From: Clostridia bacterium
Lineage (GTDB): Bacteria > Bacillota > Clostridia > Oscillospirales > CAG-272
Reading direction: 5' to 3'
Length of the DNA stretch: 64,000 nt
Assembly: GCA_017455905.1 (NCBI GenBank)
Contig: JAFTLQ010000010.1
Span: 33,468-97,467, forward strand
A model generated the notes under the pieces. The model was not told where the DNA came from and did no database searches. It saw nothing but the letters and a program-made list of their open reading frames with translations. Of the stretch, positions 5,034-33,898 are shown piece by piece. The position numbers and the translations under genes were made by a program. Position 1 is the stretch's first letter. Each line of letters begins with the position of its first letter.

Positions 5034-6047
5034 TCAAAAGCCCGTATCCGTGCTTCTGCGCCGCGTATCGTTCGGATCGTCCCCGTCGAATCCGTCACCG
5101 TCACCGTCGCCGCGCTTACGCACCGCCAGCACGATCGCTACGATGATCGCCGCGACCAGCACGACAAGAAGCACCAAAACGATCGGACGCACGCGCCAGC
5201 CGAACAGATCGACATAGGTATGTGCAAAGATGTCCTCTGCATCCTCGACCACCACGCAGATGGAAATGCCCGTTTGGGCGGTGAAGTCCTCCAGCGCCTC
5301 ATTGACCGTCGCATCCGAGATCGGCAGATCCGTGCGGTTATCGATGCGCGAGGCGACCTGTACGTGCGTTTCCGAGCAATCGAAGGGATCGACGGATGCC
5401 GCTATGACCGGGTCGATCATGGCACGCACCGTATCGGCCAGCCCCATAGTCATCGAATACTTCATCGTGCCGTCGCTCGGCATATGCGAGAGTAGCGTCC
5501 GGCCAAAGGTCGTATATTCGTTCCCGAACAGATCGCGCACCGACTTCGTCAGATCGAAGCCCAGCCATGCGATCGCATAGTAGCCCTCGTTGTCCTCGTC
5601 CATCGAAATAACGATGAGGATGTTATCCTCATACGCGGTGCTGCCGCCGAACATATCCAGATACGCCGCGTTGGCAAAGTCCTGATAGGCCTCCTCGTCG
5701 TAGGTGTATCCGTCGCCGACCGACACACAGCTGCCGACCGAGCTGAAGATGACGATCGCGACCACCAGCACCAAGATGATGGGGATCATCAAAAAGCCAA
5801 AGCAACCGCCTCCGCCGTAATACCGACGACCCCAGCCCCAGCCCCAACCCCAGCCGTAAGGATGATGGTGATGATGGGGATGGTGATGGTGCGGGCCTCC
5901 AAAGCCGCCGTGCGGACGGGGTCCTCCTCCGAAGCCGCCTCCGTGACTGCCGCCACCGAAGCCACCTCCGCGACTGCCGCCAAAGCCACCGCCGTGGCTG
6001 CCTCCTCCGAAGCCGCCTCCGCGGCTACCTCCTCCGGGTCCCGGCAT
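5034..6047 (-). CDS. membrane protein with an N-terminal Gly/His/Trp low-complexity region, two TM helices and a TPM-like central region
   Basis: AAGGAGG lies 8 nt upstream of the ATG at 6047. The N-terminus has SRGGGFGGGSHGGGFGG repeats, HHHHPHHHHHP and YGWGWGWGWG, followed by two hydrophobic helices and an acidic DGDGDGFDGDD tail. Confidence 0.6.
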   Translation of the reverse strand: MPGPGGGSRGGGFGGGSHGGGFGGSRGGGFGGGSHGGGFGGGPRPHGGFGGPHHHHPHHHHHPYGWGWGWGWGRRYYGGGGCFGFLMIPIILVLVVAIVIFSSVGSCVSVGDGYTYDEEAYQDFANAAYLDMFGGSTAYEDNILIVISMDEDNEGYYAIAWLGFDLTKSVRDLFGNEYTTFGRTLLSHMPSDGTMKYSMTMGLADTVRAMIDPVIAASVDPFDCSETHVQVASRIDNRTDLPISDATVNEALEDFTAQTGISICVVVEDAEDIFAHTYVDLFGWRVRPIVLVLLVVLVAAIIVAIVLAVRKRGDGDGDGFDGDDPNDTRRRSTDTGF

Positions 6048-6281
6048 ATCCTGTTCCTCCTTATCACTCGCCTCGTGCGAGCTTTTTCTTTATTGTAGCA
6101 CAGCCCCGCGCGCCTTGTCAAGCCGACGAAACGAAAATTCACAATGCGGAAATATCCTCTCGGCTCTCGGTACGAAGAGGACGCGCGACGCATACACTGA
6201 CAGTAGCCGATGTCCGTCTGCGCGACACTCCCATGCCACACGGCCGGGGTCGGCTTAGATACAACATCAAGGAAAAGACCC

Positions 6282-6530
6282 ATGAACCAAGTTTGTGCCG
6301 CGCGCCTGTGCGATCTGCCCGTTGGCGCGCGAACCACGATACACGAGCTGCGGGCGGCGGGAGCGATGCGCCGCCGCTTGTGTGACCTCGGCTTTCTGCC
6401 CGGTGCCACGGTCCGTTGCGTCGGCATCGCTCCTATGGGCGATCCGAAGGCGTACGAGGTACGCGGTGCTATCATTGCTCTGCGTGCGCGGGACGGGGCG
6501 GCCGTGCTGACGGAGGCCTGCCGTGAGTGA
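6282..6530 (+). CDS. feoA: ferrous iron transport protein A
   Basis: The small FeoA-type sequence (LCDLPVGARTTIHEL...RRRLCDLGFLPGATV) directly precedes feoB. The ATG at 6282 was preferred to the track start at 6210. Confidence 0.85.
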   Translation: MNQVCAARLCDLPVGARTTIHELRAAGAMRRRLCDLGFLPGATVRCVGIAPMGDPKAYEVRGAIIALRARDGAAVLTEACRE

Positions 6531-8604
6531 ACGATCCGTGTATACCGTCGCCTTGGCGGGAAATCCCAACGTCGGAAAAAGCACGCTGTTCAACGCGCTG
6601 ACGGGTCTGCATCAGCATACAGGCAACTGGCCGGGCAAGACCGTCGCTCGGGCAGAGGGCACGCTGCGGACGCAGACGCGCACCCTGCGTCTTGTCGATC
6701 TGCCGGGCACCTACTCCCTGCTGTCGCACTCGGCCGAGGAGGACGTCACGCGGGACTTTCTCGCCTTCGGGATGGCGGATGCCGCCATCGTCGTATGCGA
6801 CGCGACCTGCCTCAGCCGCAGCCTGTCCCTGGCTCTGCAGGTGATGGAGGCGGTGCCTTGCACCGTCGTTTGCGTGAATCTGCTCGACGAGGCTCGCAGC
6901 AAGGGCATTCGCATCGATCTCAACCGTCTGGCCGACAAGCTCGGCGTCCCCGTTGTCGGGACCGTAGCCAGGCGTCGTGCGTCGGCACGGCGTATTCTGT
7001 CAACCGTTGATGCGCTTTTTGACAAGTATTGTGCGCAGAAAGAGCCTGTTTTATCCTACGATGCGCCAATTGAAGACGCCGTATCCCACGTAGCGCAGGC
7101 GCTGGAATCGGCAGGCATTCGTCCGGCCGACCCCCGCTTTTGCGCGCTGCGTCTGCTGGAGGGGGACGAGGGCTTTTCGGACAGTGCGCACACCCACCTC
7201 GGTGCCGCCGTCCTGACGAGCGATGCGGTCGTACGCGCCCGCGCCGACGCGGAGCGCACGCTGTTCCTGGCGGGCATTGACGCCGACGGCTTTCGCGACC
7301 GTATGGCCGGTGCACTGCAGGCACGCGCCGAGGCCGTTTGCCATGCGTGCGTAACGTATACCAACGAGCAGGCACATCGGCGCGACCGACGCATCGACCG
7401 CCTGTTGACGGGGCGTTACACCGCCTATCCCTGTATGCTCGCCTTTCTGGCGCTCATCCTGTGGATCACCGTTTCCCTCTCCTCCTATCCGTCCGAATGG
7501 TTGAGTCGCCTCTTCCTTTGGCTGGAGGAGCCCTTGACGTCCGGTCTTTTGGCTCTGCATACACCCCCGTGGCTGTACGGCCTGCTGATCGACGGCCTTT
7601 GGCGCGTTTGCACTTGGGTCATCGCGGTCATGCTGCCGCCGATGGCCATCTTCTTCCCTCTCTTTACCTTCCTTGAGGACGTCGGGTACCTGCCGCGCAT
7701 CGCCTACAATCTCGACCGCCCCTTTGCCGCCTGCCGCGCCTGCGGCAAGCAGGCCCTGACGATGTGCATGGGGCTCGGCTGTAACGCCGTCGGCGTAACA
7801 GGCTGTCGCATCATGGATTCGGGGCGCGAGCGCACGCTGGCGCTGATCACCAACAGCTTCATGCCCTGCAACGGCCGTCTGCCGACCGTGATCGCGCTGC
7901 TCACCGTCTTTTTCGTCGGTGTCTCGGGCGGTGCCCTGGCCGGCCTCGCCTCCGCCGGTCTTCTGACGCTGGCGATCGCCCTGTGTGTCGCCGTCACGTT
8001 GCTCGTCACGCGCCTGTTATCCGTGACGCTGCTGCGCGGAGAGCCGTCCTCCTTTACCCTTGAACTGCCGCCGTACCGCACGCCGCAGGTCGGACGCATC
8101 CTCCTTCGCTCGCTGCTGGATCGCACGCTCTTCGTCCTTGGGCGTGCCGTAGCGGTCGCCGCCCCGGCGGGGATCCTGCTATGGGCGATGACCTATATCA
8201 CCGTCGGTGAGCAGTCGCTCTTGCTCACGATCGCCGGCGCGCTCGATCCCATTGGACACTTCTTTGGCATGGACGGCGTCATTCTGTCCGCCTTTATCTT
8301 CGGCTTCCCTGCCGGGGAGATCGTCGTCCCCATCATGCTGATGGCCTATCTCTCCCTCGGCTCGCTGAGTGCCGCGCCCTCCCTCGCCTATATGCACGAG
8401 GTGCTGACCGCCGCCGGATGGGACGGACAGACGGCGCTTTGCACGGTGCTGTTCTGCCTCTTTCACTTTCCCTGCTCCACAACGCTTCTTACCGTATGGA
8501 AGGAAACCAAGCGCCCGCTCTACACCGCCCTGGCGGCCCTTGTGCCGACGGTCGTCGGCCTTACCCTCTGTGCGCTGGTGCATTGGATCTGCATGCTGTT
8601 CTGA
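6523..8604 (+). CDS. feoB: ferrous iron transport protein B
   Basis: An N-terminal G domain (GNPNVGKST) is followed by a polytopic permease. The GTG start overlaps the feoA stop by 8 nt. Confidence 0.95.
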   Translation: MSERSVYTVALAGNPNVGKSTLFNALTGLHQHTGNWPGKTVARAEGTLRTQTRTLRLVDLPGTYSLLSHSAEEDVTRDFLAFGMADAAIVVCDATCLSRSLSLALQVMEAVPCTVVCVNLLDEARSKGIRIDLNRLADKLGVPVVGTVARRRASARRILSTVDALFDKYCAQKEPVLSYDAPIEDAVSHVAQALESAGIRPADPRFCALRLLEGDEGFSDSAHTHLGAAVLTSDAVVRARADAERTLFLAGIDADGFRDRMAGALQARAEAVCHACVTYTNEQAHRRDRRIDRLLTGRYTAYPCMLAFLALILWITVSLSSYPSEWLSRLFLWLEEPLTSGLLALHTPPWLYGLLIDGLWRVCTWVIAVMLPPMAIFFPLFTFLEDVGYLPRIAYNLDRPFAACRACGKQALTMCMGLGCNAVGVTGCRIMDSGRERTLALITNSFMPCNGRLPTVIALLTVFFVGVSGGALAGLASAGLLTLAIALCVAVTLLVTRLLSVTLLRGEPSSFTLELPPYRTPQVGRILLRSLLDRTLFVLGRAVAVAAPAGILLWAMTYITVGEQSLLLTIAGALDPIGHFFGMDGVILSAFIFGFPAGEIVVPIMLMAYLSLGSLSAAPSLAYMHEVLTAAGWDGQTALCTVLFCLFHFPCSTTLLTVWKETKRPLYTALAALVPTVVGLTLCALVHWICMLF

Positions 8605-10420: not shown

Positions 10421-11860
10421 ATGAACAACCGTACACTGCTTTGCGATTTCTACGAGCTGACCATGGGCAACGGCTATTTTGAGCTGGGCAAGGGAGAGGA
10501 GATCACGTATTTCGACGTCTTCTACCGCACCGTGCCCGACGGCGGCGGCTTTGCCATCGCAGCAGGCCTTGAGCAGGTCATCGAATACATCAAGGATCTG
10601 TCCTTCACCGAGGACGACATTGCCTTCCTTCGCTCCAAGGCGCTCTTCTCCGAGGATTTTCTCGAATACCTCGCACACTTCCGCTTCTCAGGTGATATCT
10701 TCGCCGTGCCCGAGGGCACGCCTATCTTCCCCGGTGAGCCCATCATGACGGTACGCGCCCCTGCCATTGAGGCACAGTTCGTCGAGACCTTTATCCTGCT
10801 GGCTATCAATCATCAATCCCTCATCGCGACCAAGGCCAACCGCGTCGTCCGCGCGGCCGACGGCCGTCCCGTGGCGGAATTCGGCTCGCGCCGTGCGCAG
10901 GGTGCCGACGGTGCCATGCTCGGCGCCAGAGCGTCGTACATCGGCGGCTGCTCCGCCACCGCCTGCACCATCTCCGACCGTATGTTCGGTATCCCCGCTA
11001 CGGGTACGATGGCGCACTCGTGGGTACAGATGTTCGACAACGAATACGACGCCTTCGTCAGCTACTGCAGGACCTATCCGCACAACGCCACGCTGCTCGT
11101 CGATACCTACGACGTGCTTCGCAGCGGTATCCCAAACGCCATCCGCGCCTTCCGCGAGGTCCTGACACCCTTAGGCATCACCTCCTGCGGCATCCGCATC
11201 GACTCGGGCGATATCACGTATCTGACCAAGCGCGCACGCAAGATGCTCGACGAGGCGGGCTTCCCCGACTGCAAGATCGTCGTGTCCAACTCCCTTGACG
11301 AAAACATCATCCGCGACATCATCCTGCAGGGCGCATGCATCGACTCCTTCGGTGTCGGCGAGCGTCTGATCACCGCTAAGAGCGATCCCGTCTTCGGCGG
11401 CGTATACAAGCTCGTCGCCAAGGAAGAGAACGGCGAGATCATCCCCAAGATCAAGATCTCCGAAAACCCCGAAAAGATCACCAATCCCCACTTCAAAAAG
11501 ATCTACCGCATCTTTGATAACGAAACGGGCAAGGCCACGGCCGACCTCATGTGCGTCTACGATGAGACCGTCGACGAAAGACAGCCGCTGGAGCTGTTCG
11601 ATCCTCAGCAGACCTGGAAGCGCAAGATCTGCGTCAACTTCACGGCTAAGGAGCTGCTCGTCCCCATCTTCAAGGACGGCGTGTGCGTATACGAATGCCC
11701 CTCCATCGACGAGGTGCGTGCCTACTGCCGCGAGCAGATCGACTGCCTGTGGGACGAGGTCAAACGCTTCGAAAATCCCCACCGCTACTACGTCGACCTG
11801 TCGCAGAAGCTGTGGGATATCAAGCACCGCCTGCTGGAAGAAAAGCACGGAAAGCCGTAA
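10421..11860 (+). CDS. pncB: nicotinate phosphoribosyltransferase
   Basis: MNNRTLLCDFYELTMGNGYF... and GTMAHSWVQ are typical of NAPRTase. AAAGGAG lies upstream of the ATG at 10421. Confidence 0.9.
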   Translation: MNNRTLLCDFYELTMGNGYFELGKGEEITYFDVFYRTVPDGGGFAIAAGLEQVIEYIKDLSFTEDDIAFLRSKALFSEDFLEYLAHFRFSGDIFAVPEGTPIFPGEPIMTVRAPAIEAQFVETFILLAINHQSLIATKANRVVRAADGRPVAEFGSRRAQGADGAMLGARASYIGGCSATACTISDRMFGIPATGTMAHSWVQMFDNEYDAFVSYCRTYPHNATLLVDTYDVLRSGIPNAIRAFREVLTPLGITSCGIRIDSGDITYLTKRARKMLDEAGFPDCKIVVSNSLDENIIRDIILQGACIDSFGVGERLITAKSDPVFGGVYKLVAKEENGEIIPKIKISENPEKITNPHFKKIYRIFDNETGKATADLMCVYDETVDERQPLELFDPQQTWKRKICVNFTAKELLVPIFKDGVCVYECPSIDEVRAYCREQIDCLWDEVKRFENPHRYYVDLSQKLWDIKHRLLEEKHGKP

Positions 11861-13962: not shown

Positions 13963-14799
13963 ATGCCGCATATCATTGAGATCCACGATCTGTCCATGAA
14001 GGAGCTGGATGTGTTCGTCCGTCTGACGGGTGCACAGCTTCGCTCGCGCCTGGAGCCGGAGCAAGGCATATTTATAGCGGAAAGCCCGACCGTCATCGAC
14101 GTGGCGCTGAAGGCCGGCTGTCAGCCGTTGTCGCTTCTGACCGATCGCCGCCTGCTGCACGGCACGGTCGAGGCGCTTCTTCCGCGTCTTGGCGATATCC
14201 CCGTGTACGTGGCGGAGGAGACCGTCCTGCGCGAGCTGACGGGCTTCGCACTGACGCGGGGCGCCCTTTGCGCCATGCGCCGACCAATGCTGCCCACCGT
14301 GGAGGATATCTGCCGGGGGGCACGCCGCATCGCCGTGCTGGAGAACATCACCGACTCCACCAATATCGGTGCCGTCTTTCGTTCGGCGGCCGCCTTTGCG
14401 ATCGACGCCGTGCTGATCACGCCCTCCTGCTGTGATCCGCTGTGCCGCCGCGCTCTGCGCGTCAGCATGGGCACGGTGCTGCAGATCCCCTTTACCCGCA
14501 TCGGAGATACCGCCGCCGACTGGCCGACGGACGGTCTGCGTCGGCTGCACGCGATGGGCTTTACCACCTGTGCGATGGCGCTGAGCGACGATTCCATATC
14601 CATCGACGACCCGCGCCTTTTGCGTGAGGAACGGCTGGCGATCATCCTCGGCACGGAGGGCGACGGCCTGTCAGGGTCGACGGTCGCCGCCTGCGACTAC
14701 ACCGTCAAGATCCCCATGTCGCACAGCGTCGACTCTCTCAACGTCGCGGCGGCAGGCGCCGTCGCCTTCTGGCAGCTGACCCGCCCGACCAACGGCTGA
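13963..14799 (+). CDS. TrmH/SpoU-family RNA 2'-O-methyltransferase
   Basis: GGAGG at 13951 precedes the ATG at 13963. The SpoU motifs NIGAVFRSAAAF, LGTEGDGLS and SLNVAAAGAVAFW are present. Confidence 0.85.
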   Translation: MPHIIEIHDLSMKELDVFVRLTGAQLRSRLEPEQGIFIAESPTVIDVALKAGCQPLSLLTDRRLLHGTVEALLPRLGDIPVYVAEETVLRELTGFALTRGALCAMRRPMLPTVEDICRGARRIAVLENITDSTNIGAVFRSAAAFAIDAVLITPSCCDPLCRRALRVSMGTVLQIPFTRIGDTAADWPTDGLRRLHAMGFTTCAMALSDDSISIDDPRLLREERLAIILGTEGDGLSGSTVAACDYTVKIPMSHSVDSLNVAAAGAVAFWQLTRPTNG

Positions 14800-14846
14800 C
14801 GCGCACCCGTGTGTAAAAAGGATTTTAAATTTTTTTCAAAAAGGGG

Positions 14847-14875
14847 TTGACAAACCCGATCCTGCGTGCTATAAT
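14847..14875 (+). promoter_or_regulatory. consensus sigma-A promoter of the tRNA operon
   Basis: TTGACA (14847-14852), a 17-nt spacer, then TATAAT (14870-14875), with an A/T-rich UP-like tract upstream. Confidence 0.75.
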
Positions 14876-14893
14876 AATCCATGCACGTTGATC

Positions 14894-14969
14894 GGAAGGT
14901 TAGCTCAGTTGGGAGAGCAACTGCCTTACAAGCAGTGGGTCGGGGGTTCGAGCCCCTCACTTTCCACCA
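14894..14969 (+). tRNA. tRNA-Val (anticodon TAC)
   Basis: A cloverleaf folds by hand, with acceptor GGAAGGT/ACTTTCC, anticodon loop CTTACAA, T-arm GGTTCGAGCCC and an encoded CCA. Confidence 0.9.
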
Positions 14970-14970
14970 A

Positions 14971-14996
14971 TCGCCGCTTGCAAAAGCGGCGATTTT
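14971..14996 (+). terminator. terminator-like hairpin inside the tRNA operon
   Basis: TCGCCGC (14971-14977) pairs with GCGGCGA (14986-14992), followed by TTTT, between tRNA-Val and tRNA-Asp. Confidence 0.5.
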
Positions 14997-15004
14997 ACAG
15001 GAAT

Positions 15005-15081
15005 GGCTTGGTAGCTCAGTTGGTTAGAGCGCTAGCCTGTCACGCTAGAGGTCGTGGGTTCGAGCCCCATCCGAGTCGCCA
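15005..15081 (+). tRNA. tRNA-Asp (anticodon GTC)
   Basis: Acceptor GGCTTGG/CCGAGTC, anticodon loop CTGTCAC, T-arm GGTTCGAGCCC and an encoded CCA. Confidence 0.9.
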
Positions 15082-15089
15082 TCCTGTAC

Positions 15090-15165
15090 GCCTCTGTAGC
15101 TCAGTTGGTAGAGCAGGGGACTGAAAATCCCCGTGTCGTTGGTTCGATTCCGACCGGAGGCACCA
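15090..15165 (+). tRNA. tRNA-Phe (anticodon GAA)
   Basis: Acceptor GCCTCTG/CGGAGGC, anticodon loop CTGAAAA, T-arm GGTTCGATTCC and an encoded CCA. Confidence 0.9.
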
Positions 15166-15168
15166 CAT

Positions 15169-15244
15169 GCGGATTTAGCTCATTTGGTAGAGCGCGACCT
15201 TGCCAAGGTCGAGGTGGCGGGTTCGAGCCCCGTAATCCGCTCCA
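15169..15244 (+). tRNA. tRNA-Gly (anticodon GCC)
   Basis: Acceptor GCGGATT/AATCCGC, anticodon loop TTGCCAA, T-arm GGTTCGAGCCC and an encoded CCA. Confidence 0.9.
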
Positions 15245-22295: not shown

Positions 22296-22340
22296 ATCAT
22301 GACCGTCGGTACATTCCGACGGTCATGATTATTTTTTTAT
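22296..22340 (+). terminator. intrinsic terminator after gdhA
   Basis: A 14-bp stem forms between ATCATGACCGTCGG (22296-22309) and CCGACGGTCATGAT (22316-22329), followed by a T-rich run. Confidence 0.85.
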
Positions 22341-22349
22341 AAAAACCCC

Positions 22350-22378
22350 TTGCAAGGCGAGAAAAATTATGTTACAAT
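22350..22378 (+). promoter_or_regulatory. sigma-A-like promoter of the methyltransferase/GTPase-NYN operon
   Basis: TTGCAA (22350-22355), a 17-nt spacer with TGT (extended -10 like), then TACAAT (22373-22378). Confidence 0.55.
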
Positions 22379-22416: not shown

Positions 22417-23976
22417 ATGTTAAATTTAGCATGTCGGAACACCAATAAGCTCATACGCGAGCGATCCAAGGAGGAGAACGTACGCCTCGGCCGTCTGTTT
22501 ACCAAAAAAGACACCGCGCGTCGCATGGCCGACATGGTCACCCTCGACCCTTCCAAGACCGCCTATACCATCCTGGACCCCGGTGCGGGCACGGGCATTC
22601 TGTCGGCGGCGCTCATTGAGCGCATCTGCCGTGAGGTTCCCGCCTGCCGCCAGATCTTCATCACCTGCTACGAAACGGAGCAGCTCTTTTTGCCCATGCT
22701 GGCAGACAACCTGGAGCGCATCCGCCGCAAGTGCCGTCACGACTTTGACGTCAAGCTGTTTGTGACCATCTTCGACGAAAACTACGTCGTCGATTCCAAG
22801 CATCACTATACGGTGACCTTCTCGCGCACCGAGCAGGACACCTTCGATCTCATCATCTGCAATCCGCCGAGCGAGCTGTGCCTCAAGGATTCCGAGGAGG
22901 CAGAAAGCGCGGGCGGCGTGACGCAGGTCAAGATCAACTCAGCCTATCTCTTTGCCAAGATGGCGGCCGGCCATCTGGAGCCCGGCGGACAGCTGGTCAT
23001 CCTGCTTCCGACCACCGCCGCCACCGCGTCACAGCTGACGCCCTTCCGCCGCTTTATGCACGAGACGCTCACGCTTCGCGCGGTGCATCTGTTCATCGGC
23101 GTACAAAAGAATCCCAAGCGTGCCGTCCCGCTCAAGAAGACGATGATCCTCGCCTTTGCCGCCACCGACGTGCGCGATACGGTCGCGATCACGACCTCCA
23201 CCGATCAGGGCTCTCCCGAGCATACGGTCGCCCTGCCCAAACTGGCCTACGACTTCGTCGTGGATAAGACGGACGGCTCGCTGACCCTTCCCAAGAGCGT
23301 GGAGGACACCAATATCGTCCGTTACATATCCGCCTTCCCCGAAACGCTGTCCTCGCTCGGGCTCAAGATCGCCACGGGACGCATTTTGGACGCACGCTGC
23401 AAGGATCTGCTCTTCAACGACGCCGCCAAGGGCCTTGTTCCCCTGTTCCGTCCCTGTACCATTCAGGGCGGACGCATCGAATTCCCCGGCACGCAGAAAA
23501 AGAATCCCAATCTGCCGCCGATGGTCGCGCCGCATCAGTATATCGCCCCCGTTACGGCCAATCTCGTACAGCGTAACAAAAATATGATCTTCATCAAGCG
23601 CGTCTTTTCCAAGAGTGACGAGCGCTTTATCAACGCGGGCGTGCATATGGCCGCCTCCCTGCCGGCGTATCCCTACATCAGCACCCACAACAAGATCCTC
23701 TTCATCGATACCAAAAACGCCAAGGGCGAGATGAGCGCGCGCTTCGTCTACGGTCTGTTTGCTCTGCTCAACTCCACCATCTACGATCGCTACGTATCCA
23801 TCATCTCCAAGTCCAAGCAGATCAACGCCAAGGAATTCCGCGATCTTCCCCTGCCGCCCGCCAACCTGATCGAAAACATGGGTATGCGCCTGATGTCCCT
23901 CCGTATGACGACCGTGCAGGCCTGTGATTCCATCGTCAATCCCACGCTGCATATCATCGACAAGACCAAGGAATAA
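22417..23976 (+). CDS. orphan N6-adenine methyltransferase, Eco57I/TaqI-like (gamma class), with a TaqI_C-like specificity domain
   Basis: The SAM motif DPGAGTGIL lies upstream of the catalytic-type motif ICNPPSEL (NPPS rather than NPPY/F). The C-terminus (LLNSTIYDRYVSIISKSKQINAKEFRDLPLP) resembles a TaqI-type target recognition domain. No nuclease domain is visible. Confidence 0.75.
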   Translation: MLNLACRNTNKLIRERSKEENVRLGRLFTKKDTARRMADMVTLDPSKTAYTILDPGAGTGILSAALIERICREVPACRQIFITCYETEQLFLPMLADNLERIRRKCRHDFDVKLFVTIFDENYVVDSKHHYTVTFSRTEQDTFDLIICNPPSELCLKDSEEAESAGGVTQVKINSAYLFAKMAAGHLEPGGQLVILLPTTAATASQLTPFRRFMHETLTLRAVHLFIGVQKNPKRAVPLKKTMILAFAATDVRDTVAITTSTDQGSPEHTVALPKLAYDFVVDKTDGSLTLPKSVEDTNIVRYISAFPETLSSLGLKIATGRILDARCKDLLFNDAAKGLVPLFRPCTIQGGRIEFPGTQKKNPNLPPMVAPHQYIAPVTANLVQRNKNMIFIKRVFSKSDERFINAGVHMAASLPAYPYISTHNKILFIDTKNAKGEMSARFVYGLFALLNSTIYDRYVSIISKSKQINAKEFRDLPLPPANLIENMGMRLMSLRMTTVQACDSIVNPTLHIIDKTKE

Positions 23977-24006
23977 ACCCATAAAATCCATCGAAAGGAG
24001 TCCGTC

Positions 24007-26580
24007 ATGCGTACCCTGACCGTTGGCATCGTCGCCCACGTCGACGCGGGCAAAACGACCCTGACGGAAGCTCTTTTATACACGGCCGGTGCCATTAAGC
24101 GCATCGGCCGTGTTGATAAAGGGGATTGCTTCCTTGATACGCACAGCATCGAGCGCGAGCGCGGCATCACCGTGTTTTCCAAGCAGGCCGTGTGTACCCA
24201 CGCGGACACGGACATCACCTTCGTCGACACACCGGGGCACATCGATTTCGCCTGTGAGACCGAGCGCACCCTCGCGGTGCTGGATGCCTGTATCCTCGTC
24301 GTCAGCGCGACGGAGCCCATCCGCGCCCACACCAAGACGCTATGGCGTATGCTCGCCTCTCACCGCATCCCCGTCCTTCTCTTCGTCAACAAAATGGATA
24401 TGGCCTCCCGCACGCGTGCGGAGATATTGGCCGATCTGCGTGCGGAGCTTGACGACCGCTGTGCCGACTTTTGCCTGAGCGCTCCCCGTTTCGCTGAGGA
24501 AACGGCCGCGGTCAACGAGGCGTTGATGGCGCACTATTTTGCAAATGAATGTTTACCAGACGAGGCCATTCGACACGAGATCCGTGCCAGACGCCTCTTT
24601 CCCGTCTGGTTCGGATCGGCGCTGCGCAACGACGGCGTACGCGCCTTTCTTGACGGGCTCGTCAAATACGCCGAGGCGCCCGTCTACGGCGATCTGCTCG
24701 GTCTGAAGGTCTTTAAGATCGCGCGCGACGCGCAGGGCAACCGTCTAAGCTACGTCAAGGTGACAGGCGGCGTGCTGCGCACCAAGGATCGTCTGACCCT
24801 GCGCGGTGCCGACGGACGGGTCAGCGAAGAAAAGGTCGAGCAGCTGCGCATCTATTCCGGGGATAAATTCCGCACGGAAAACGAGATCGAGGCCGGACGC
24901 GTGTGCGCCATGCTCGGCCCGCAGAACACCTATTGCGGCCAAGGCATCGGCATCGAGATGTCGGAGGAGCAAGCCGCTCTTGAGCCCATTCTCACCTACC
25001 GTCTGCAGCTGCCGCACGGTACCGACCTGTTCTCGGCCTACGAGATCCTGTTGCGCCTTTCCGAGGAGGATCCCTCCCTGCACCCCGTATACGATGAGCG
25101 ACACGGTGAGCTTTTGCTCCGTCTGATGGGCGACATACAGGCCGAGATCCTGCGCCGCGTGCTGCAGGATCGCTTTGGCCTCTCCGTCACCTTCGGACAG
25201 GGAAAGATCTTATATAAGGAAACGATCGCCTCGTGCGTTCACGGTGCCGGCCACTTTGAGCCGCTGTGCCACTATGCCGAGGTGCATCTGCGCATGACGC
25301 CGCTTTCCCCCGGCTCGGGGCTTGTCTTTACCTCCGATTGCTCCACCGACGTCCTCTCGCTCCATTGGCAGCGCCTCGTGCTAACGCATCTGGAGGAGCG
25401 TGCCCATCTCGGCGTGCTGACGGGCTCCCCCATCACCGATATGGAAATCGCCCTCATCGGCGGCCGCGCCCACAACAAGCATACCGAGGGCGGCGATTTC
25501 CGTCAAGCCACCTACCGTGCCGTTAGGCAGGGACTGATGAAGGCGGACTCCGTCCTTCTTGAGCCCTATATGTCCTTCCGCATCGAGCTACCGAACGAAT
25601 ACGTCGGGCGGGCAATGACCGATCTTTCGGTGCGCTCGGCGACACCGAGCGCACCCGAGACCGACGGCCAAACGGCCATTCTGACGGGCATCGGCCCCGC
25701 CGCCACGCTGCGCGATTATCCCGCCGAGCTGCGCGCCTATACTCGCGCCGAGGGACAGATGCAGATGACCATGGTCGGCTACTACCCCTGTCACAATACC
25801 GACGAGGTCCTCGCCGCGACGGGCTACGATCCCCTGCTCGACGAGCGTCATCCGCCGCATTCGGTCTTTTGCAAGAACGGTGCCGGCTACGTCGTCCCGT
25901 GGGACGAGGCCGACGCGCTCATGCACGTGCCGTGCGACGACAGCCTCCGCACACACGCCGCCGAGCCCGTGCGCACCGTACGGGCATCGACGCGCACCTA
26001 TCAAAGCTCGGCCGAGGAGGATCGCGAGCTGATGCGCATCTTTGAGGCGACCTACGGCAAGGTGCGTAGGCGCACGGTCAGCGACAAGCAGCAATACACC
26101 GCCGCCGAGCCCTCGCCCAAGCGCCAAACGCCAAAGGCACGGCCGCGCGGCGATACCTACCTTCTCGTCGACGGCTACAACATCATTCACGCATGGGACG
26201 ATCTGCGCGCCTTAGCGTCCCCTACGCTGGCGCACGCCCGTGACACGCTGATCCGACGCCTGTGTAACTACGCAGGCTTCCGCCACATACACGTCATTCT
26301 CGTCTTTGACGCCTATCTCGTCAAGGGCGGTCAGGGCAGCGTCGAATCCTACGGCCCCGTATCGGTGGTCTACACCAAGGAGCGGCAAACGGCCGACGCC
26401 TACATTGAGCGCGCGTCGTACGAGATCGCCCGCGAGCATACCGTCCGCGTCGCCACCTCCGACGCCGCCGAGCAGCTCATCGTCCTCGGCAACGGCGCCC
26501 TGCGCATCACGCCCGAGGAGCTGCGCGAGGAGCTGAAGCTCGCCGACGAGCAGATCGGCGCCTGCCTGGAGGCTCGCTGA
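24007..26580 (+). CDS. EF-G/TetM-like translational GTPase fused to a C-terminal Rae1/YacP-type NYN ribonuclease domain
   Basis: It carries G motifs AHVDAGKT, DTPGH and NKMD and is collinear with TetM/EF-G through LLEPYMSFRIELP. The last ~140 aa (from nt 26158) align with B. subtilis Rae1 at LLVDGYN, VFDA and ATSD. Confidence 0.85.
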   Translation: MRTLTVGIVAHVDAGKTTLTEALLYTAGAIKRIGRVDKGDCFLDTHSIERERGITVFSKQAVCTHADTDITFVDTPGHIDFACETERTLAVLDACILVVSATEPIRAHTKTLWRMLASHRIPVLLFVNKMDMASRTRAEILADLRAELDDRCADFCLSAPRFAEETAAVNEALMAHYFANECLPDEAIRHEIRARRLFPVWFGSALRNDGVRAFLDGLVKYAEAPVYGDLLGLKVFKIARDAQGNRLSYVKVTGGVLRTKDRLTLRGADGRVSEEKVEQLRIYSGDKFRTENEIEAGRVCAMLGPQNTYCGQGIGIEMSEEQAALEPILTYRLQLPHGTDLFSAYEILLRLSEEDPSLHPVYDERHGELLLRLMGDIQAEILRRVLQDRFGLSVTFGQGKILYKETIASCVHGAGHFEPLCHYAEVHLRMTPLSPGSGLVFTSDCSTDVLSLHWQRLVLTHLEERAHLGVLTGSPITDMEIALIGGRAHNKHTEGGDFRQATYRAVRQGLMKADSVLLEPYMSFRIELPNEYVGRAMTDLSVRSATPSAPETDGQTAILTGIGPAATLRDYPAELRAYTRAEGQMQMTMVGYYPCHNTDEVLAATGYDPLLDERHPPHSVFCKNGAGYVVPWDEADALMHVPCDDSLRTHAAEPVRTVRASTRTYQSSAEEDRELMRIFEATYGKVRRRTVSDKQQYTAAEPSPKRQTPKARPRGDTYLLVDGYNIIHAWDDLRALASPTLAHARDTLIRRLCNYAGFRHIHVILVFDAYLVKGGQGSVESYGPVSVVYTKERQTADAYIERASYEIAREHTVRVATSDAAEQLIVLGNGALRITPEELREELKLADEQIGACLEAR

Positions 26581-28380: not shown

Positions 28381-28821
28381 ATGAAAAACGAACCGTATAC
28401 CTCTCGCATCCGGCGGCATACGCCGCCCTCCCCCACGAAGAAGAATTGCCTGTTCGCCTTTTTGATCGGCGGGGGCATCTGCTTTGCGGGACAATGGCTT
28501 TTGTACCTGTACGAGGCCCTGGGAGCGACGCGGGACGACGCCTCGACACTCGTTACGGTGACGCTCATCTTTTTGAGTGCCCTTTTGACGGGGATCGGCG
28601 TGTACGACCGCATCGCCCGCGTCGCGGGCGCCGGTACGCTCGTGCCGGTCACAGGCTTTGCCAACGCCGTCGTGTCCCCTGCCATTGATACGAAGCAGGA
28701 GGGCTTTATCCTCGGCGTCGGTGCCAAGATCTTCACCGTCGCAGGGCCCGTTATCCTGTACGGCGTATTGTGCGGCGCCGTATACGGCGTGCTGTATTCC
28801 GTTATTTTGTGGTTTGTATAA
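28381..28821 (+). CDS. spoVAC: stage V sporulation protein AC
   Basis: The sequence is typical of SpoVAC (FAFLIGGGICFAGQ...TGFANAVVSPAIDTKQEGFILGVGAKIF). Confidence 0.9.
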   Translation: MKNEPYTSRIRRHTPPSPTKKNCLFAFLIGGGICFAGQWLLYLYEALGATRDDASTLVTVTLIFLSALLTGIGVYDRIARVAGAGTLVPVTGFANAVVSPAIDTKQEGFILGVGAKIFTVAGPVILYGVLCGAVYGVLYSVILWFV

Positions 28822-28831
28822 AGGAGAGCTT

Positions 28832-29839
28832 ATGCGACAACGTATCCGTTATCTATCCTCCCCACCGTCCTTCGTCAGCTTTGCCGCCGTCGGCGGCCGC
28901 GAGGAGGGACAAGGCCCTCTCGGCCCCTGCTTCGACCATCTGGATCCGTCCGATCGCTTCGGTCAGACGTCGTGGGAGCGTGCCGAGGGAGAGATGGGGC
29001 GCATCGCACTCAATTTCGCGCTGAAAAAGGCGTCGCTTTCGCCGCAGCAGCTGTCGGTGCTGTTCGCCGGCGACCTGCAAAACCAATGCGTCGCCTCCTC
29101 GGGAGGCCTGTATTCCTTCGGCATCCCGTATATCGGTCTGTACGGCGCTTGCTCGACCTGTACGGAGGGACTGCTGTCACTGTCCGTCTGGCTCTCAGAG
29201 CAGGCCGACCGACAGGACGTTATGGGTGCGGCCGTTACGACCTCGCACAACTGCGCCGCCGAGCGGCAATTCCGCCAGCCCATCGAATACGGCGGCCAGC
29301 GTCCGCCAAGCGCCCAATGGACGGCTACGGCGGCAGGCGCCTTTATCCTCGGGAGTCGGGAGGGTGACGTGCGCATCACGGAGGTATGCCCCGGCAAGAT
29401 CGTCGACGGAGAGATCTCCGATGCGACCAATATGGGCGCCGCCATGGCGCCGGCGGCGGTCGATACCCTGCTGACGTATATGCAGCAGAGTGGCCGTGCG
29501 CCGTCCTCCTTTGACGCGATCGTGACGGGTGACCTCGGAGCGGTCGGCACCTCCCTGCTTCAGGAGATGCTCCTTGAGGAGGGCATCGACGTCCGTCAGA
29601 ATCACCTCGATTGCGGCAATCTTCTGTTCGACAGCGAGCGGCAGGACGTGCACAGCGGCGGCTCGGGATGCGGATGCTCCGCCTCGGTGCTGGCTACGCA
29701 CATTTTACCCGCGCTGATGCGTGCCGAGATGAAGGACGTGCTGTTCCTGTCAACGGGGGCGCTGATGAGCACCTCCAGCGTACAGCAGGGCGAGCATATC
29801 TTCGGTATCGCGCCGCTCATTCGCATCCAGCGCTTTTAG
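28832..29839 (+). CDS. spoVAD: stage V sporulation protein AD
   Basis: It is thiolase-fold-like SpoVAD (GDLQNQC...GACSTCTEGL...) and sits between spoVAC and spoVAE. AAGGAG lies upstream. Confidence 0.9.
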   Translation: MRQRIRYLSSPPSFVSFAAVGGREEGQGPLGPCFDHLDPSDRFGQTSWERAEGEMGRIALNFALKKASLSPQQLSVLFAGDLQNQCVASSGGLYSFGIPYIGLYGACSTCTEGLLSLSVWLSEQADRQDVMGAAVTTSHNCAAERQFRQPIEYGGQRPPSAQWTATAAGAFILGSREGDVRITEVCPGKIVDGEISDATNMGAAMAPAAVDTLLTYMQQSGRAPSSFDAIVTGDLGAVGTSLLQEMLLEEGIDVRQNHLDCGNLLFDSERQDVHSGGSGCGCSASVLATHILPALMRAEMKDVLFLSTGALMSTSSVQQGEHIFGIAPLIRIQRF

Positions 29840-29881
29840 AAAAAGTCAAAAACAAAAGAGCGTAAAGAAAGGAAGCACGCT

Positions 29882-30262
29882 ATGTTCTTATCCATGATGA
29901 CAACGAGCCTTCTGGCCTTTGCCGTCGGGGGCGGCCTGTGCGTCGTGGCACAGCTGCTCATTGACAAGACGGCCTTAACACCGGCGAGGATCCTCGTTTT
30001 GTACGTGTCCTTCGGCGTCCTGCTCGGCGCCGTCGGTCTCTTTGAGCCGCTTGTTTCGCTCGTGGGGTGCGGCATCACCGTCCCTCTCGTGGGCTTCGGC
30101 GGCAATATTGCCCGCGGCGTGCGCGAGGCCGTGCTGGAGCAGGGCCTGCTCGGCGCACTCAGCGGGGGCTTTACCGCGGCGGCGGTTGGCTGTGCCGCCG
30201 CGCTGCTGTTCGGCTATCTCGCTGCGCTCTGCTTTCGCGGTCAACCCAAGCGCATATCATAG
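29882..30262 (+). CDS. spoVAE: stage V sporulation protein AE (SpoVAEb type)
   Basis: It is a small polytopic protein (VPLVGFGGNIARGV) and the third gene of the spoVA cluster. Confidence 0.85.
   Translation: MFLSMMTTSLLAFAVGGGLCVVAQLLIDKTALTPARILVLYVSFGVLLGAVGLFEPLVSLVGCGITVPLVGFGGNIARGVREAVLEQGLLGALSGGFTAAAVGCAAALLFGYLAALCFRGQPKRIS

Positions 30263-31992: not shown

Positions 31993-33898
<1,906 letters not shown>

Follow-up and report, generated by a model that had tools for sequence, protein, structure and literature searches.

What might a translational GTPase and a ribonuclease do as parts of one protein? The question is raised by an open reading frame (ORF) on contig JAFTLQ010000010.1 of the Clostridia bacterium assembly GCA_017455905.1, within a stretch of 64,000 nucleotides (positions 33,468 to 97,467 of the forward strand) that we call the window and whose numbering we use below. 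A first-pass annotation, made from the sequence alone, had read this ORF as an EF-G/TetM-like GTPase joined to a Rae1 (YacP)-type NYN endoribonuclease. The two-module reading is borne out by a Pfam search, by an AlphaFold2 (AF2) model and by the architecture of the relatives. Tet-like GTPase-NYN fusions had already been described on bioinformatic grounds in two papers, Atkinson 2015 (PMC4342817) and Matelska et al. 2017 (PMC5499597). The window protein has the architecture, class (Clostridia) and length of those fusions and is a further member of a described, uncharacterised family; the fusion itself is not new. Judged by its sequence, it is the product of a real single gene with two modules and with both catalytic centres intact, and we propose a role for it in the rescue of stalled ribosomes.

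The fusion gene and its two modules

The ORF is the only long one at its position and translates into 857 amino acids. Its parts, and the ribosome-binding site before it, are as follows.

24007..26580, plus strand: fusion ORF, 857 amino acids plus stop; TetM-like translational GTPase and Rae1/YacP-type NYN nuclease
23993..24000, plus strand: Shine-Dalgarno sequence GAAAGGAG, read from the sequence, with 6 nt between its end and the ATG
24010..24675, plus strand: G domain, residues 2-223 (Pfam GTP_EFTU), with G1 AHVDAGKT, switch I RGIT, G3 DTPGH (catalytic H78) and G4 NKMD; G' insert reduced as in TetM
24709..25197, plus strand: domains II and III, residues 235-397 (Pfam EF-G_D2, weak, and EFG_III), confident in the AF2 model, which as a whole has the EF-G fold
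25204..25545, plus strand: domain IV, residues 400-513 (Pfam EFG_IV), the portion that extends to the decoding centre in EF-G and TetM
25468..25503, plus strand: equivalent of domain IV loop III, AHNKHTEGGDFR, residues 488-499, a family signature that stands where Tet(M) has YYSPVSTPADFR
25552..25797, plus strand: domain V, residues 516-597 (Pfam EFG_C), aligned to domain V of TetO, TetM and EF-G
25798..25938, plus strand: family-specific folded extension, residues 598-644 (AF2 predicted local distance difference test, pLDDT, about 80-88), with conserved SVFC.xG.G, W632 and H640
25939..26154, plus strand: flexible tether, residues 645-716, basic and Ser/Pro-rich (pLDDT <50 at 645-668 and 688-713)
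26011..26061, plus strand: amphipathic helix within the tether, residues 669-685, EEDRELMRIFEATYGK (AF2 helix 669-683), moderately conserved
26155..26577, plus strand: NYN (PIN-like) endoribonuclease domain of the YacP/Rae1 type, residues 717-857 (Pfam NYN_YacP), confident in the AF2 model

The Pfam domain scores of the protein are far above chance. GTP_EFTU covers residues 2-223 (E=2.1e-49), EF-G_D2 residues 235-308 (weak), EFG_III residues 334-397 (E=8.5e-9), EFG_IV residues 400-513 (E=8.7e-16) and EFG_C residues 516-597 (E=1.2e-16); NYN_YacP follows at residues 719-851 (E=5.4e-45, 153.8 bits against a cut-off of 24.6) and is matched over profile positions 1-135 of 166. The AF2 model, built from an input of 61 family sequences (mean pLDDT 83, predicted template modelling score 0.58), consists of a confident EF-G-like body (1-644), a low-confidence stretch (645-716) and a confident NYN domain (717-857), and in Foldseek it matched EF-G structures with E about 1e-54 over about 690 columns. 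Both the five-domain layout (G, II, III, IV, V) and the fold of the EF-G/EF2 family are found in the protein. The first-pass annotation had ended the GTPase at about residue 640 and placed a linker after it. The flexible, basic character of that linker stands, and its limits are refined to a body that runs to residue 644 and includes the extension, followed by a tether at 645-716 that holds a conserved helix. The motifs it had quoted (AHVDAGKT, DTPGH, NKMD, LLEPYMSFRIELP, LLVDGYN, VFDA and ATSD) are all present.

Conservation was read from an alignment of 150 diverse representatives with 39-53% identity to the query, and the counts out of 151 given below come from the same set of relatives. 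The invariant positions of G1, switch I, G3 (H78) and G4 are 94-99% conserved, and for this reason the GTPase is likely active. The G' insertion is mostly absent, query residues 142-162 covering EF-G residues 151-216. In domain IV the loop GxGHFEPL (413-420) is near-invariant, and in the loop KHTEGGDFR (491-499) residues K491, H492, T493, G495, G496, D497, F498 and R499 are 87-99% conserved, with E494 at 77%. The tip of domain IV, which is neither that of TetM nor that of EF-G, is thus under strong constraint, and this speaks for a specific contact made in the decoding region.

Following domain V, the extension is predicted to fold as a helix (598-605), a hairpin (619-630) and a second helix (632-638). 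It is common to a GTPase-only homologue from Ligilactobacillus salivarius and is lacking in Tet(M). At 25789-25926 of the window (residues 595-640), Cys595 and Cys622 are both Cys in 116 of 151 relatives and His640 is kept in 138 of 151, a set that may constitute a metal site or a redox pair; position 624 is His in most relatives and Asn in the window protein. The tether varies from 15 to 191 amino acids across the family (median 85), and its helix is conserved at E674 (137/151), I678 (134/151) and G684 (107/151). That this helix (ELMRIFEATYG) is a displaced copy of the C-terminal tail of Rae1 (EVLKTFEKWRRG) was considered and found unsupported, as hmmscan of the fragments gave no NYN_YacP match; the likeness of E-L-M-R-I-F-E-A-T-Y-G to E-V-L-K-T-F-E-K-W-R-R-G of the Rae1 tail is superficial and unsupported by that search.

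A search with the NYN domain found B. subtilis YacP/Rae1 (sequences of the crystal structures 5mq8/5mq9) with E=2e-24, and the domain is ~42% identical to Rae1 over 130 residues, with the same NYN fold. The four acidic residues of Rae1 are shared: D722, D768, D797 and D819 align with Rae1 D7, D53, D81 and D104, and each is kept in 147-148 of 151 relatives (97-98%), so that the earlier claim of a Rae1/YacP match with its catalytic Asp residues retained holds. D722 and D797 are the equivalents of the residues changed in the published catalytic mutant of Rae1, D7N/D81N (PMC10351889), and the domain is presumably an active Rae1-type nuclease. The window protein stops 6 residues past the NYN_YacP match, and the Rae1-like tail (profile positions about 136-166) is absent. 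A C-terminal tail of at least 20 further residues is present in 66 of 151 relatives (about 44%), and the longest of these tails have in common ..YLFD.L....L..IRLG, a motif reminiscent of the tail of Rae1. The subclade of the window protein is without this tail; otherwise the protein is no different in structure from the fusions described before. Rae1 is a free protein of 170 amino acids, encoded in a cysS-mrnC-rlmB-rae1-sigH operon and binding the ribosome only transiently, whereas the fusion ties the nuclease covalently to a factor-site GTPase, lacks the Rae1 tail (about 136-170) and has a gene that is either monocistronic or variable in its placement. NCBIfam has no model that matches Rae1 itself.

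A widespread and mostly vertically inherited family

A frameshift or assembly artefact, a possibility raised by the first-pass annotation, is ruled out. Exactly this protein recurs on 11 independent metagenomic contigs, and the 120 best clusters at the 90% level (53-100% identity, 840-890 amino acids) all have its Pfam architecture. In a 50%-identity library of 1.84 billion representatives, of which the top 150 matches were examined (39-53% identity), almost all are 830-1000 amino acids long and match over their whole length, the alignment beginning at residue 1 and reaching about residue 850. The fusion architecture thereby occurs in at least 150 clusters at 50% identity. Fusions from Monoglobus and Agathobacter are 47% and 45% identical to the window protein, respectively.

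The family is also much larger than the about ten species covered by the earlier reports. We scanned species-representative genomes (one genome per species) with two family-specific domain IV peptide patterns, one of them including the KHTEGGDFR loop, and obtained at least 598 confirmed matches to the family GTPase signature, spanning Oscillospirales, Lachnospirales and Monoglobales. The best 80 all extend through the NYN domain. By their record titles these 80 include, within Oscillospirales, Oscillospiraceae, Ruminococcus, Faecalibacterium (F. prausnitzii among them), Flavonifractor, Intestinimonas, Dysosmobacter and Anaerotruncus; within Lachnospiraceae, Blautia, Butyrivibrio, Dorea, Anaerobutyricum, Herbinix and Mobilitalea; and further Acutalibacteraceae and Monoglobales-type organisms. 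The nearest sequence neighbour comes from the same order for 16 of 18 Lachnospirales and 31 of 39 Oscillospirales sequences. On these comparisons, the gene looks like a chromosomal core gene with mostly vertical inheritance and not like a mobile resistance or defence gene. The wide distribution, the order-level kinship, the lack of a conserved neighbour and the lack of a match in PADLOC (0 families for the fusion protein) together point to a housekeeping rather than an accessory function.

Apparent cases of mobile carriage were looked at individually. Two full-length matches in a plasmid collection, from Monoglobus and Agathobacter, are large records that hold secA, rpoB/C and ribosomal proteins, and plasmid carriage of the fusion was rejected. 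Phage carriage was rejected as well for the one record examined: the 'Bacteriophage sp.' entry MT835563 is marked UNVERIFIED, carries DAP epimerase, NAD(P)HX dehydratase and LysR and resembles a bacterial contig. GenBank has two such unannotated human-faecal contigs that encode the C-terminal part of the fusion, MT835563.1 and MT835514.1, and gene content was examined for MT835563. The fusion also occurs on a 6.7-kb contig binned to a Bacteroidota genome (CAVEPP010000094.1, 'Alloprevotella sp.'), which is probably binning contamination and not transfer out of Clostridia.

Megaplasmid carriage is genuine for the GTPase-only homologue of L. salivarius. This protein (LSL_RS10690 of pMP118, 644 amino acids) is 44% identical to the fusion over residues 1-640 and shares its loops (GVGHFEPL and HTVGGDFRQ) and its extension (PCHN...SVFCAHGAGY); it differs in having neither tether nor NYN domain and in lying on a megaplasmid beside an rpsN paralogue. 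Its gene (5986-7920 of the pMP118 locus), found in dozens of L. salivarius megaplasmids, is divergent from the rpsN (S14) paralogue and from a 'putative metal homeostasis protein', a placement suggestive of some connection with alternative-ribosome or zinc regulation.

Proposed action on the ribosome

Factors of the EF-G/TetM type bind at the GTPase centre and direct domain IV toward the A site, and their C-terminus emerges beside domain IV. Building on this geometry, we consider the chances evenly balanced that the fusion is a chromosomal housekeeping enzyme, a GTP-gated, ribosome-tethered mRNA endonuclease for stalled-ribosome rescue. In such a scheme the TetM-like module, in its GTP form, would dock at the factor-binding site and insert domain IV into a vacant A site, which it would recognise as TetM does. 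The NYN nuclease, attached to the C-terminal end by a flexible tether of ~70 residues, would cut the mRNA of the stalled ribosome or of a collided neighbour. The truncated message would allow the stall to be cleared by trans-translation and mRNA decay, as has been proposed for free-standing Rae1, and GTP hydrolysis would free the factor. Ribosome binding, the ribosomal state recognised, the mRNA substrate, the position of the cut and the link to transfer-messenger RNA (tmRNA) are all inferred. Since domain IV would fill the decoding site and the tether is long, a cut outside the A-site codon, on the mRNA entry side or on a collided neighbour, is more likely than one inside it.

What is known of Rae1 has itself changed. 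The first-pass annotation took cleavage in the A site as established, a view since withdrawn by the same laboratory: according to work of 2025-26, Rae1 acts on stalled or collided ribosomes and cuts 12 nt upstream of the A site. Its cleavage of mRNA on such ribosomes feeds tmRNA (PMC12407103, PMC13622287), and a 2026 preprint describes cutting on collided ribosomes that feeds trans-translation (PMC13622287). No structure of ribosome-bound Rae1 exists, owing to its transient binding (PMC13622287). The action on ribosome-bound mRNA that we presume for the fusion is carried over from Rae1. The proposed logic, in which a nuclease recruited to the ribosome cuts the mRNA of a stalled ribosome and so enables rescue, is also that of SmrB in E. 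coli and Cue2 in yeast; these have an SMR fold unrelated to NYN and are recruited through the disome interface or ubiquitin, not by a translational GTPase.

Several points weigh against this proposal. The GTPase-only homologues of L. salivarius have the same domain IV loop, and their existence implies that the GTPase module has a job independent of the nuclease. Atkinson favoured an rRNA target (PMC4342817). Experimental work on the GTPase-NYN fusion family was not found in the literature searched, in keeping with the first-pass annotation, which knew of no characterised member. Lastly, the fusion may either replace Rae1 or add a distinct activity. A second NYN copy was found within +-8 kb of the fusion in none of 83 loci. 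When the plasmid collection was searched by tblastn with the NYN domain, the Monoglobus and Agathobacter records yielded the fused copy alone. The cysS-mrnC-rlmB-rae1-sigH block is absent at the nusG loci of Monoglobus and Agathobacter and at the cysS locus of Subdoligranulum, so that synteny is silent on a free Rae1 there. The free-standing NYN protein of C. difficile, used as a query, gave matches from Peptostreptococcaceae alone. The gene after rae1 in Bacillus is sigH, and in one Anaerotruncus sp. locus (14637-15242) a sigH gene lies about 5 kb downstream of the fusion, the only remnant of a rae1 neighbourhood among the 83 loci. In the window itself a SpoU/RlmB-like methyltransferase segment (14335-14793, plus strand; 25% identity to B. 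subtilis RlmB, E=1e-12) lies ~10 kb upstream of the fusion and is not adjacent to it.

A bolder and more tentative version, to which we give a clearly smaller chance, would make the fusion a rescue sensor and effector that does not depend on collisions. The TetM-like module would sense any ribosome with a vacant A site and license the Rae1 domain by GTP, and the fusion would have replaced free-standing Rae1 in much of Clostridia. Taken as a Rosetta stone, it would also show that Rae1 in other bacteria operates from the factor-binding side of the ribosome, perhaps in partnership with a translational GTPase.

An rRNA or pre-rRNA target is unlikely, and it is the best placed of the remaining alternatives. 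Here the GTPase would be a device for recognising ribosomes or subunits, and the nuclease would inactivate and degrade damaged or idle ribosomes or take part in rRNA maturation. An early prediction assigned YacP to rRNA/tRNA processing, since its gene shares an operon with those of Mini-III and RlmB; that operon was also observed in this analysis. The EF-G relatives LepA and BipA act in subunit biogenesis. Set against this, all established substrates of Rae1 are translated mRNA (PMC12407103, PMC10351889, PMC13622287), the NYN domain has the identity to Rae1 and the catalytic residues described above, and in none of the 83 loci does the fusion gene stand beside rRNA-processing genes.

Slightly less likely still is delivery of the nuclease to the A site, where the NYN domain would cleave the A-site codon in the manner of RelE and under GTP control. 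In established structures, factors of the EF-G/TetM type have a C-terminus that comes back to domain IV close to the decoding centre, so the NYN domain would start tethered close to the A site. Its own domain IV, to judge from TetM and EF-G complexes, would however fill the decoding region and leave little room for a 15-kDa NYN domain, making simultaneous occupancy of the A site by the nuclease sterically unlikely, and a tether so long and variable suits a more distant site.

Whether the fusion is a tetracycline ribosomal protection protein with an accessory NYN domain is a matter of how close it stands to Tet(M). Like Tet(M) and Tet(O), it has a five-domain, EF-G-like GTPase with a reduced G' insert; it is collinear with Tet(M) through domain V, as the first-pass annotation had stated, the string LLEPYMSFRIELP having LLEPYLSFKIYAP as its Tet(M) counterpart; its best NCBIfam model is tet_protect; and Atkinson placed the fusion family inside the Tet subfamily (PMC4342817). 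NCBI records moreover call the same protein cluster a 'TetM/TetW/TetO/TetS family tetracycline resistance ribosomal protection protein', as in MBQ7314805.1 (P0271), MBQ8413751.1 (P0277) and WP_306784676.1 (L002, 7974-10775). The scores tell against that name. The tet_protect model (NF012153) reaches 397 bits, half of its equivalog cut-off of 775, and the TetM/W/O/S model (NF033148) 266 bits against 1100, while identity to Tet(M) of pCF10 is 29%. The equivalog cut-offs for EF-G are likewise missed (TIGR00484, 285 bits against 659; NF009381, 318 against 583). These scores, the low identity to Tet(M) and the loops and extension shared with L. salivarius lead us to regard the GTPase module, on sequence grounds, as a distinct TetM-like paralogue family, some of whose members have the nuclease while others lack it.

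Loop III of domain IV points the same way, being the most important element for tetracycline release by Tet(M) (PMC4750697). The first-pass annotation had remarked that this loop differs, and the alignment of GGRAHNKHTEGGDFRQ with YYSPVSTPADFR of Tet(M), free of indels and with equal loop length, agrees: YYSPVSTP (Y506-P513) aligns with AHNKHTEG with zero common residues before DFR, so that KHTEGGDFR in the fusion replaces YSPVSTPADFR by a different, family-conserved loop. The C-terminal extension is another one too, that of Tet(M) not being conserved, and an NYN domain is appended. Inheritance is mostly vertical in a chromosomal, non-mobile context, in contrast to the mobile Tet(M) and Tet(O), and there is no leader peptide upstream of the fusion. 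A tetracycline protection protein is thus improbable, as had been suspected from the start.

Genomic setting and what the family may mean

In the window the fusion gene lies among genes for GDH, a DNA methyltransferase, a DUF2752 protein and spoVA, with no str operon. Three features upstream complete its immediate setting.

22417-23976, plus strand: type II-like N6-adenine DNA methyltransferase, 519 amino acids (PADLOC MTase_II, E=6e-58), ending 30 nt before the fusion
22350-22378: promoter-like site upstream of the methyltransferase gene
22296-22329: strong terminator upstream of the methyltransferase gene

The methyltransferase and the fusion are probably co-transcribed. A functional link between them was considered and rejected: a methyltransferase stands at position -1 in 4 of 83 loci, and next to an identical fusion elsewhere it is split into two ORFs (L088) or has a 105-amino-acid gene in its place (L089). 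When the neighbouring ORFs of the 83 loci were clustered, every family was confined to at most 11 loci and lacked a fixed position, and there was no conserved mobile or antitoxin-like partner. Just downstream of the fusion the window has spoVAD and a SpoVAC/SpoVAEB-family gene (28658-30262, plus strand), and cotJA/cotJB (10911-11367) lie just downstream of the fusion in Monoglobus; this proximity to sporulation genes is probably coincidence, as non-sporulating genera also bear the fusion.

The least probable role of all is that of a toxin or of an abortive-infection or defence effector cutting ribosome-bound RNA on phage infection or stress, which the first-pass annotation had offered as a candidate and for which the frequency of ribosome-directed RNases among toxins, the methyltransferase 30 nt upstream in the window and a BrnT/CopG pair upstream in Agathobacter might speak, since the protein has no PADLOC match and no conserved neighbour, the methyltransferase is inconstant, the one 'phage' record examined is unverified and rich in housekeeping genes, carriage by a real phage or plasmid was not found, and the gene is vertically distributed across whole Clostridia orders with the behaviour of a core gene.

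The family has a practical side for annotation. Labels of tetracycline resistance on fusions that score far under the NCBIfam cut-offs probably give rise to false calls of such resistance in gut metagenomes, and as public databases largely label the family in this way, they could inflate resistance-gene counts in metagenomic surveys that rely on labels.

For the biology of translation, the fusion bears on a question of bacterial ribosome quality control, the route by which Rae1 reaches stalled or collided ribosomes. A Rae1 domain joined to a factor that can be locked by a non-hydrolysable GTP analogue, as TetM was, offers a practical handle and a natural trapping tool, and a Rosetta-stone fusion in a large conserved family of dominant gut bacteria could make ribosome recognition by Rae1 experimentally tractable. 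The family is found in very abundant commensals of the human and animal gut, such as Faecalibacterium, Ruminococcus, Blautia and Agathobacter, and whatever the role of the fusion may be, it is therefore a major and as yet unstudied element in how the microbiome controls translation.

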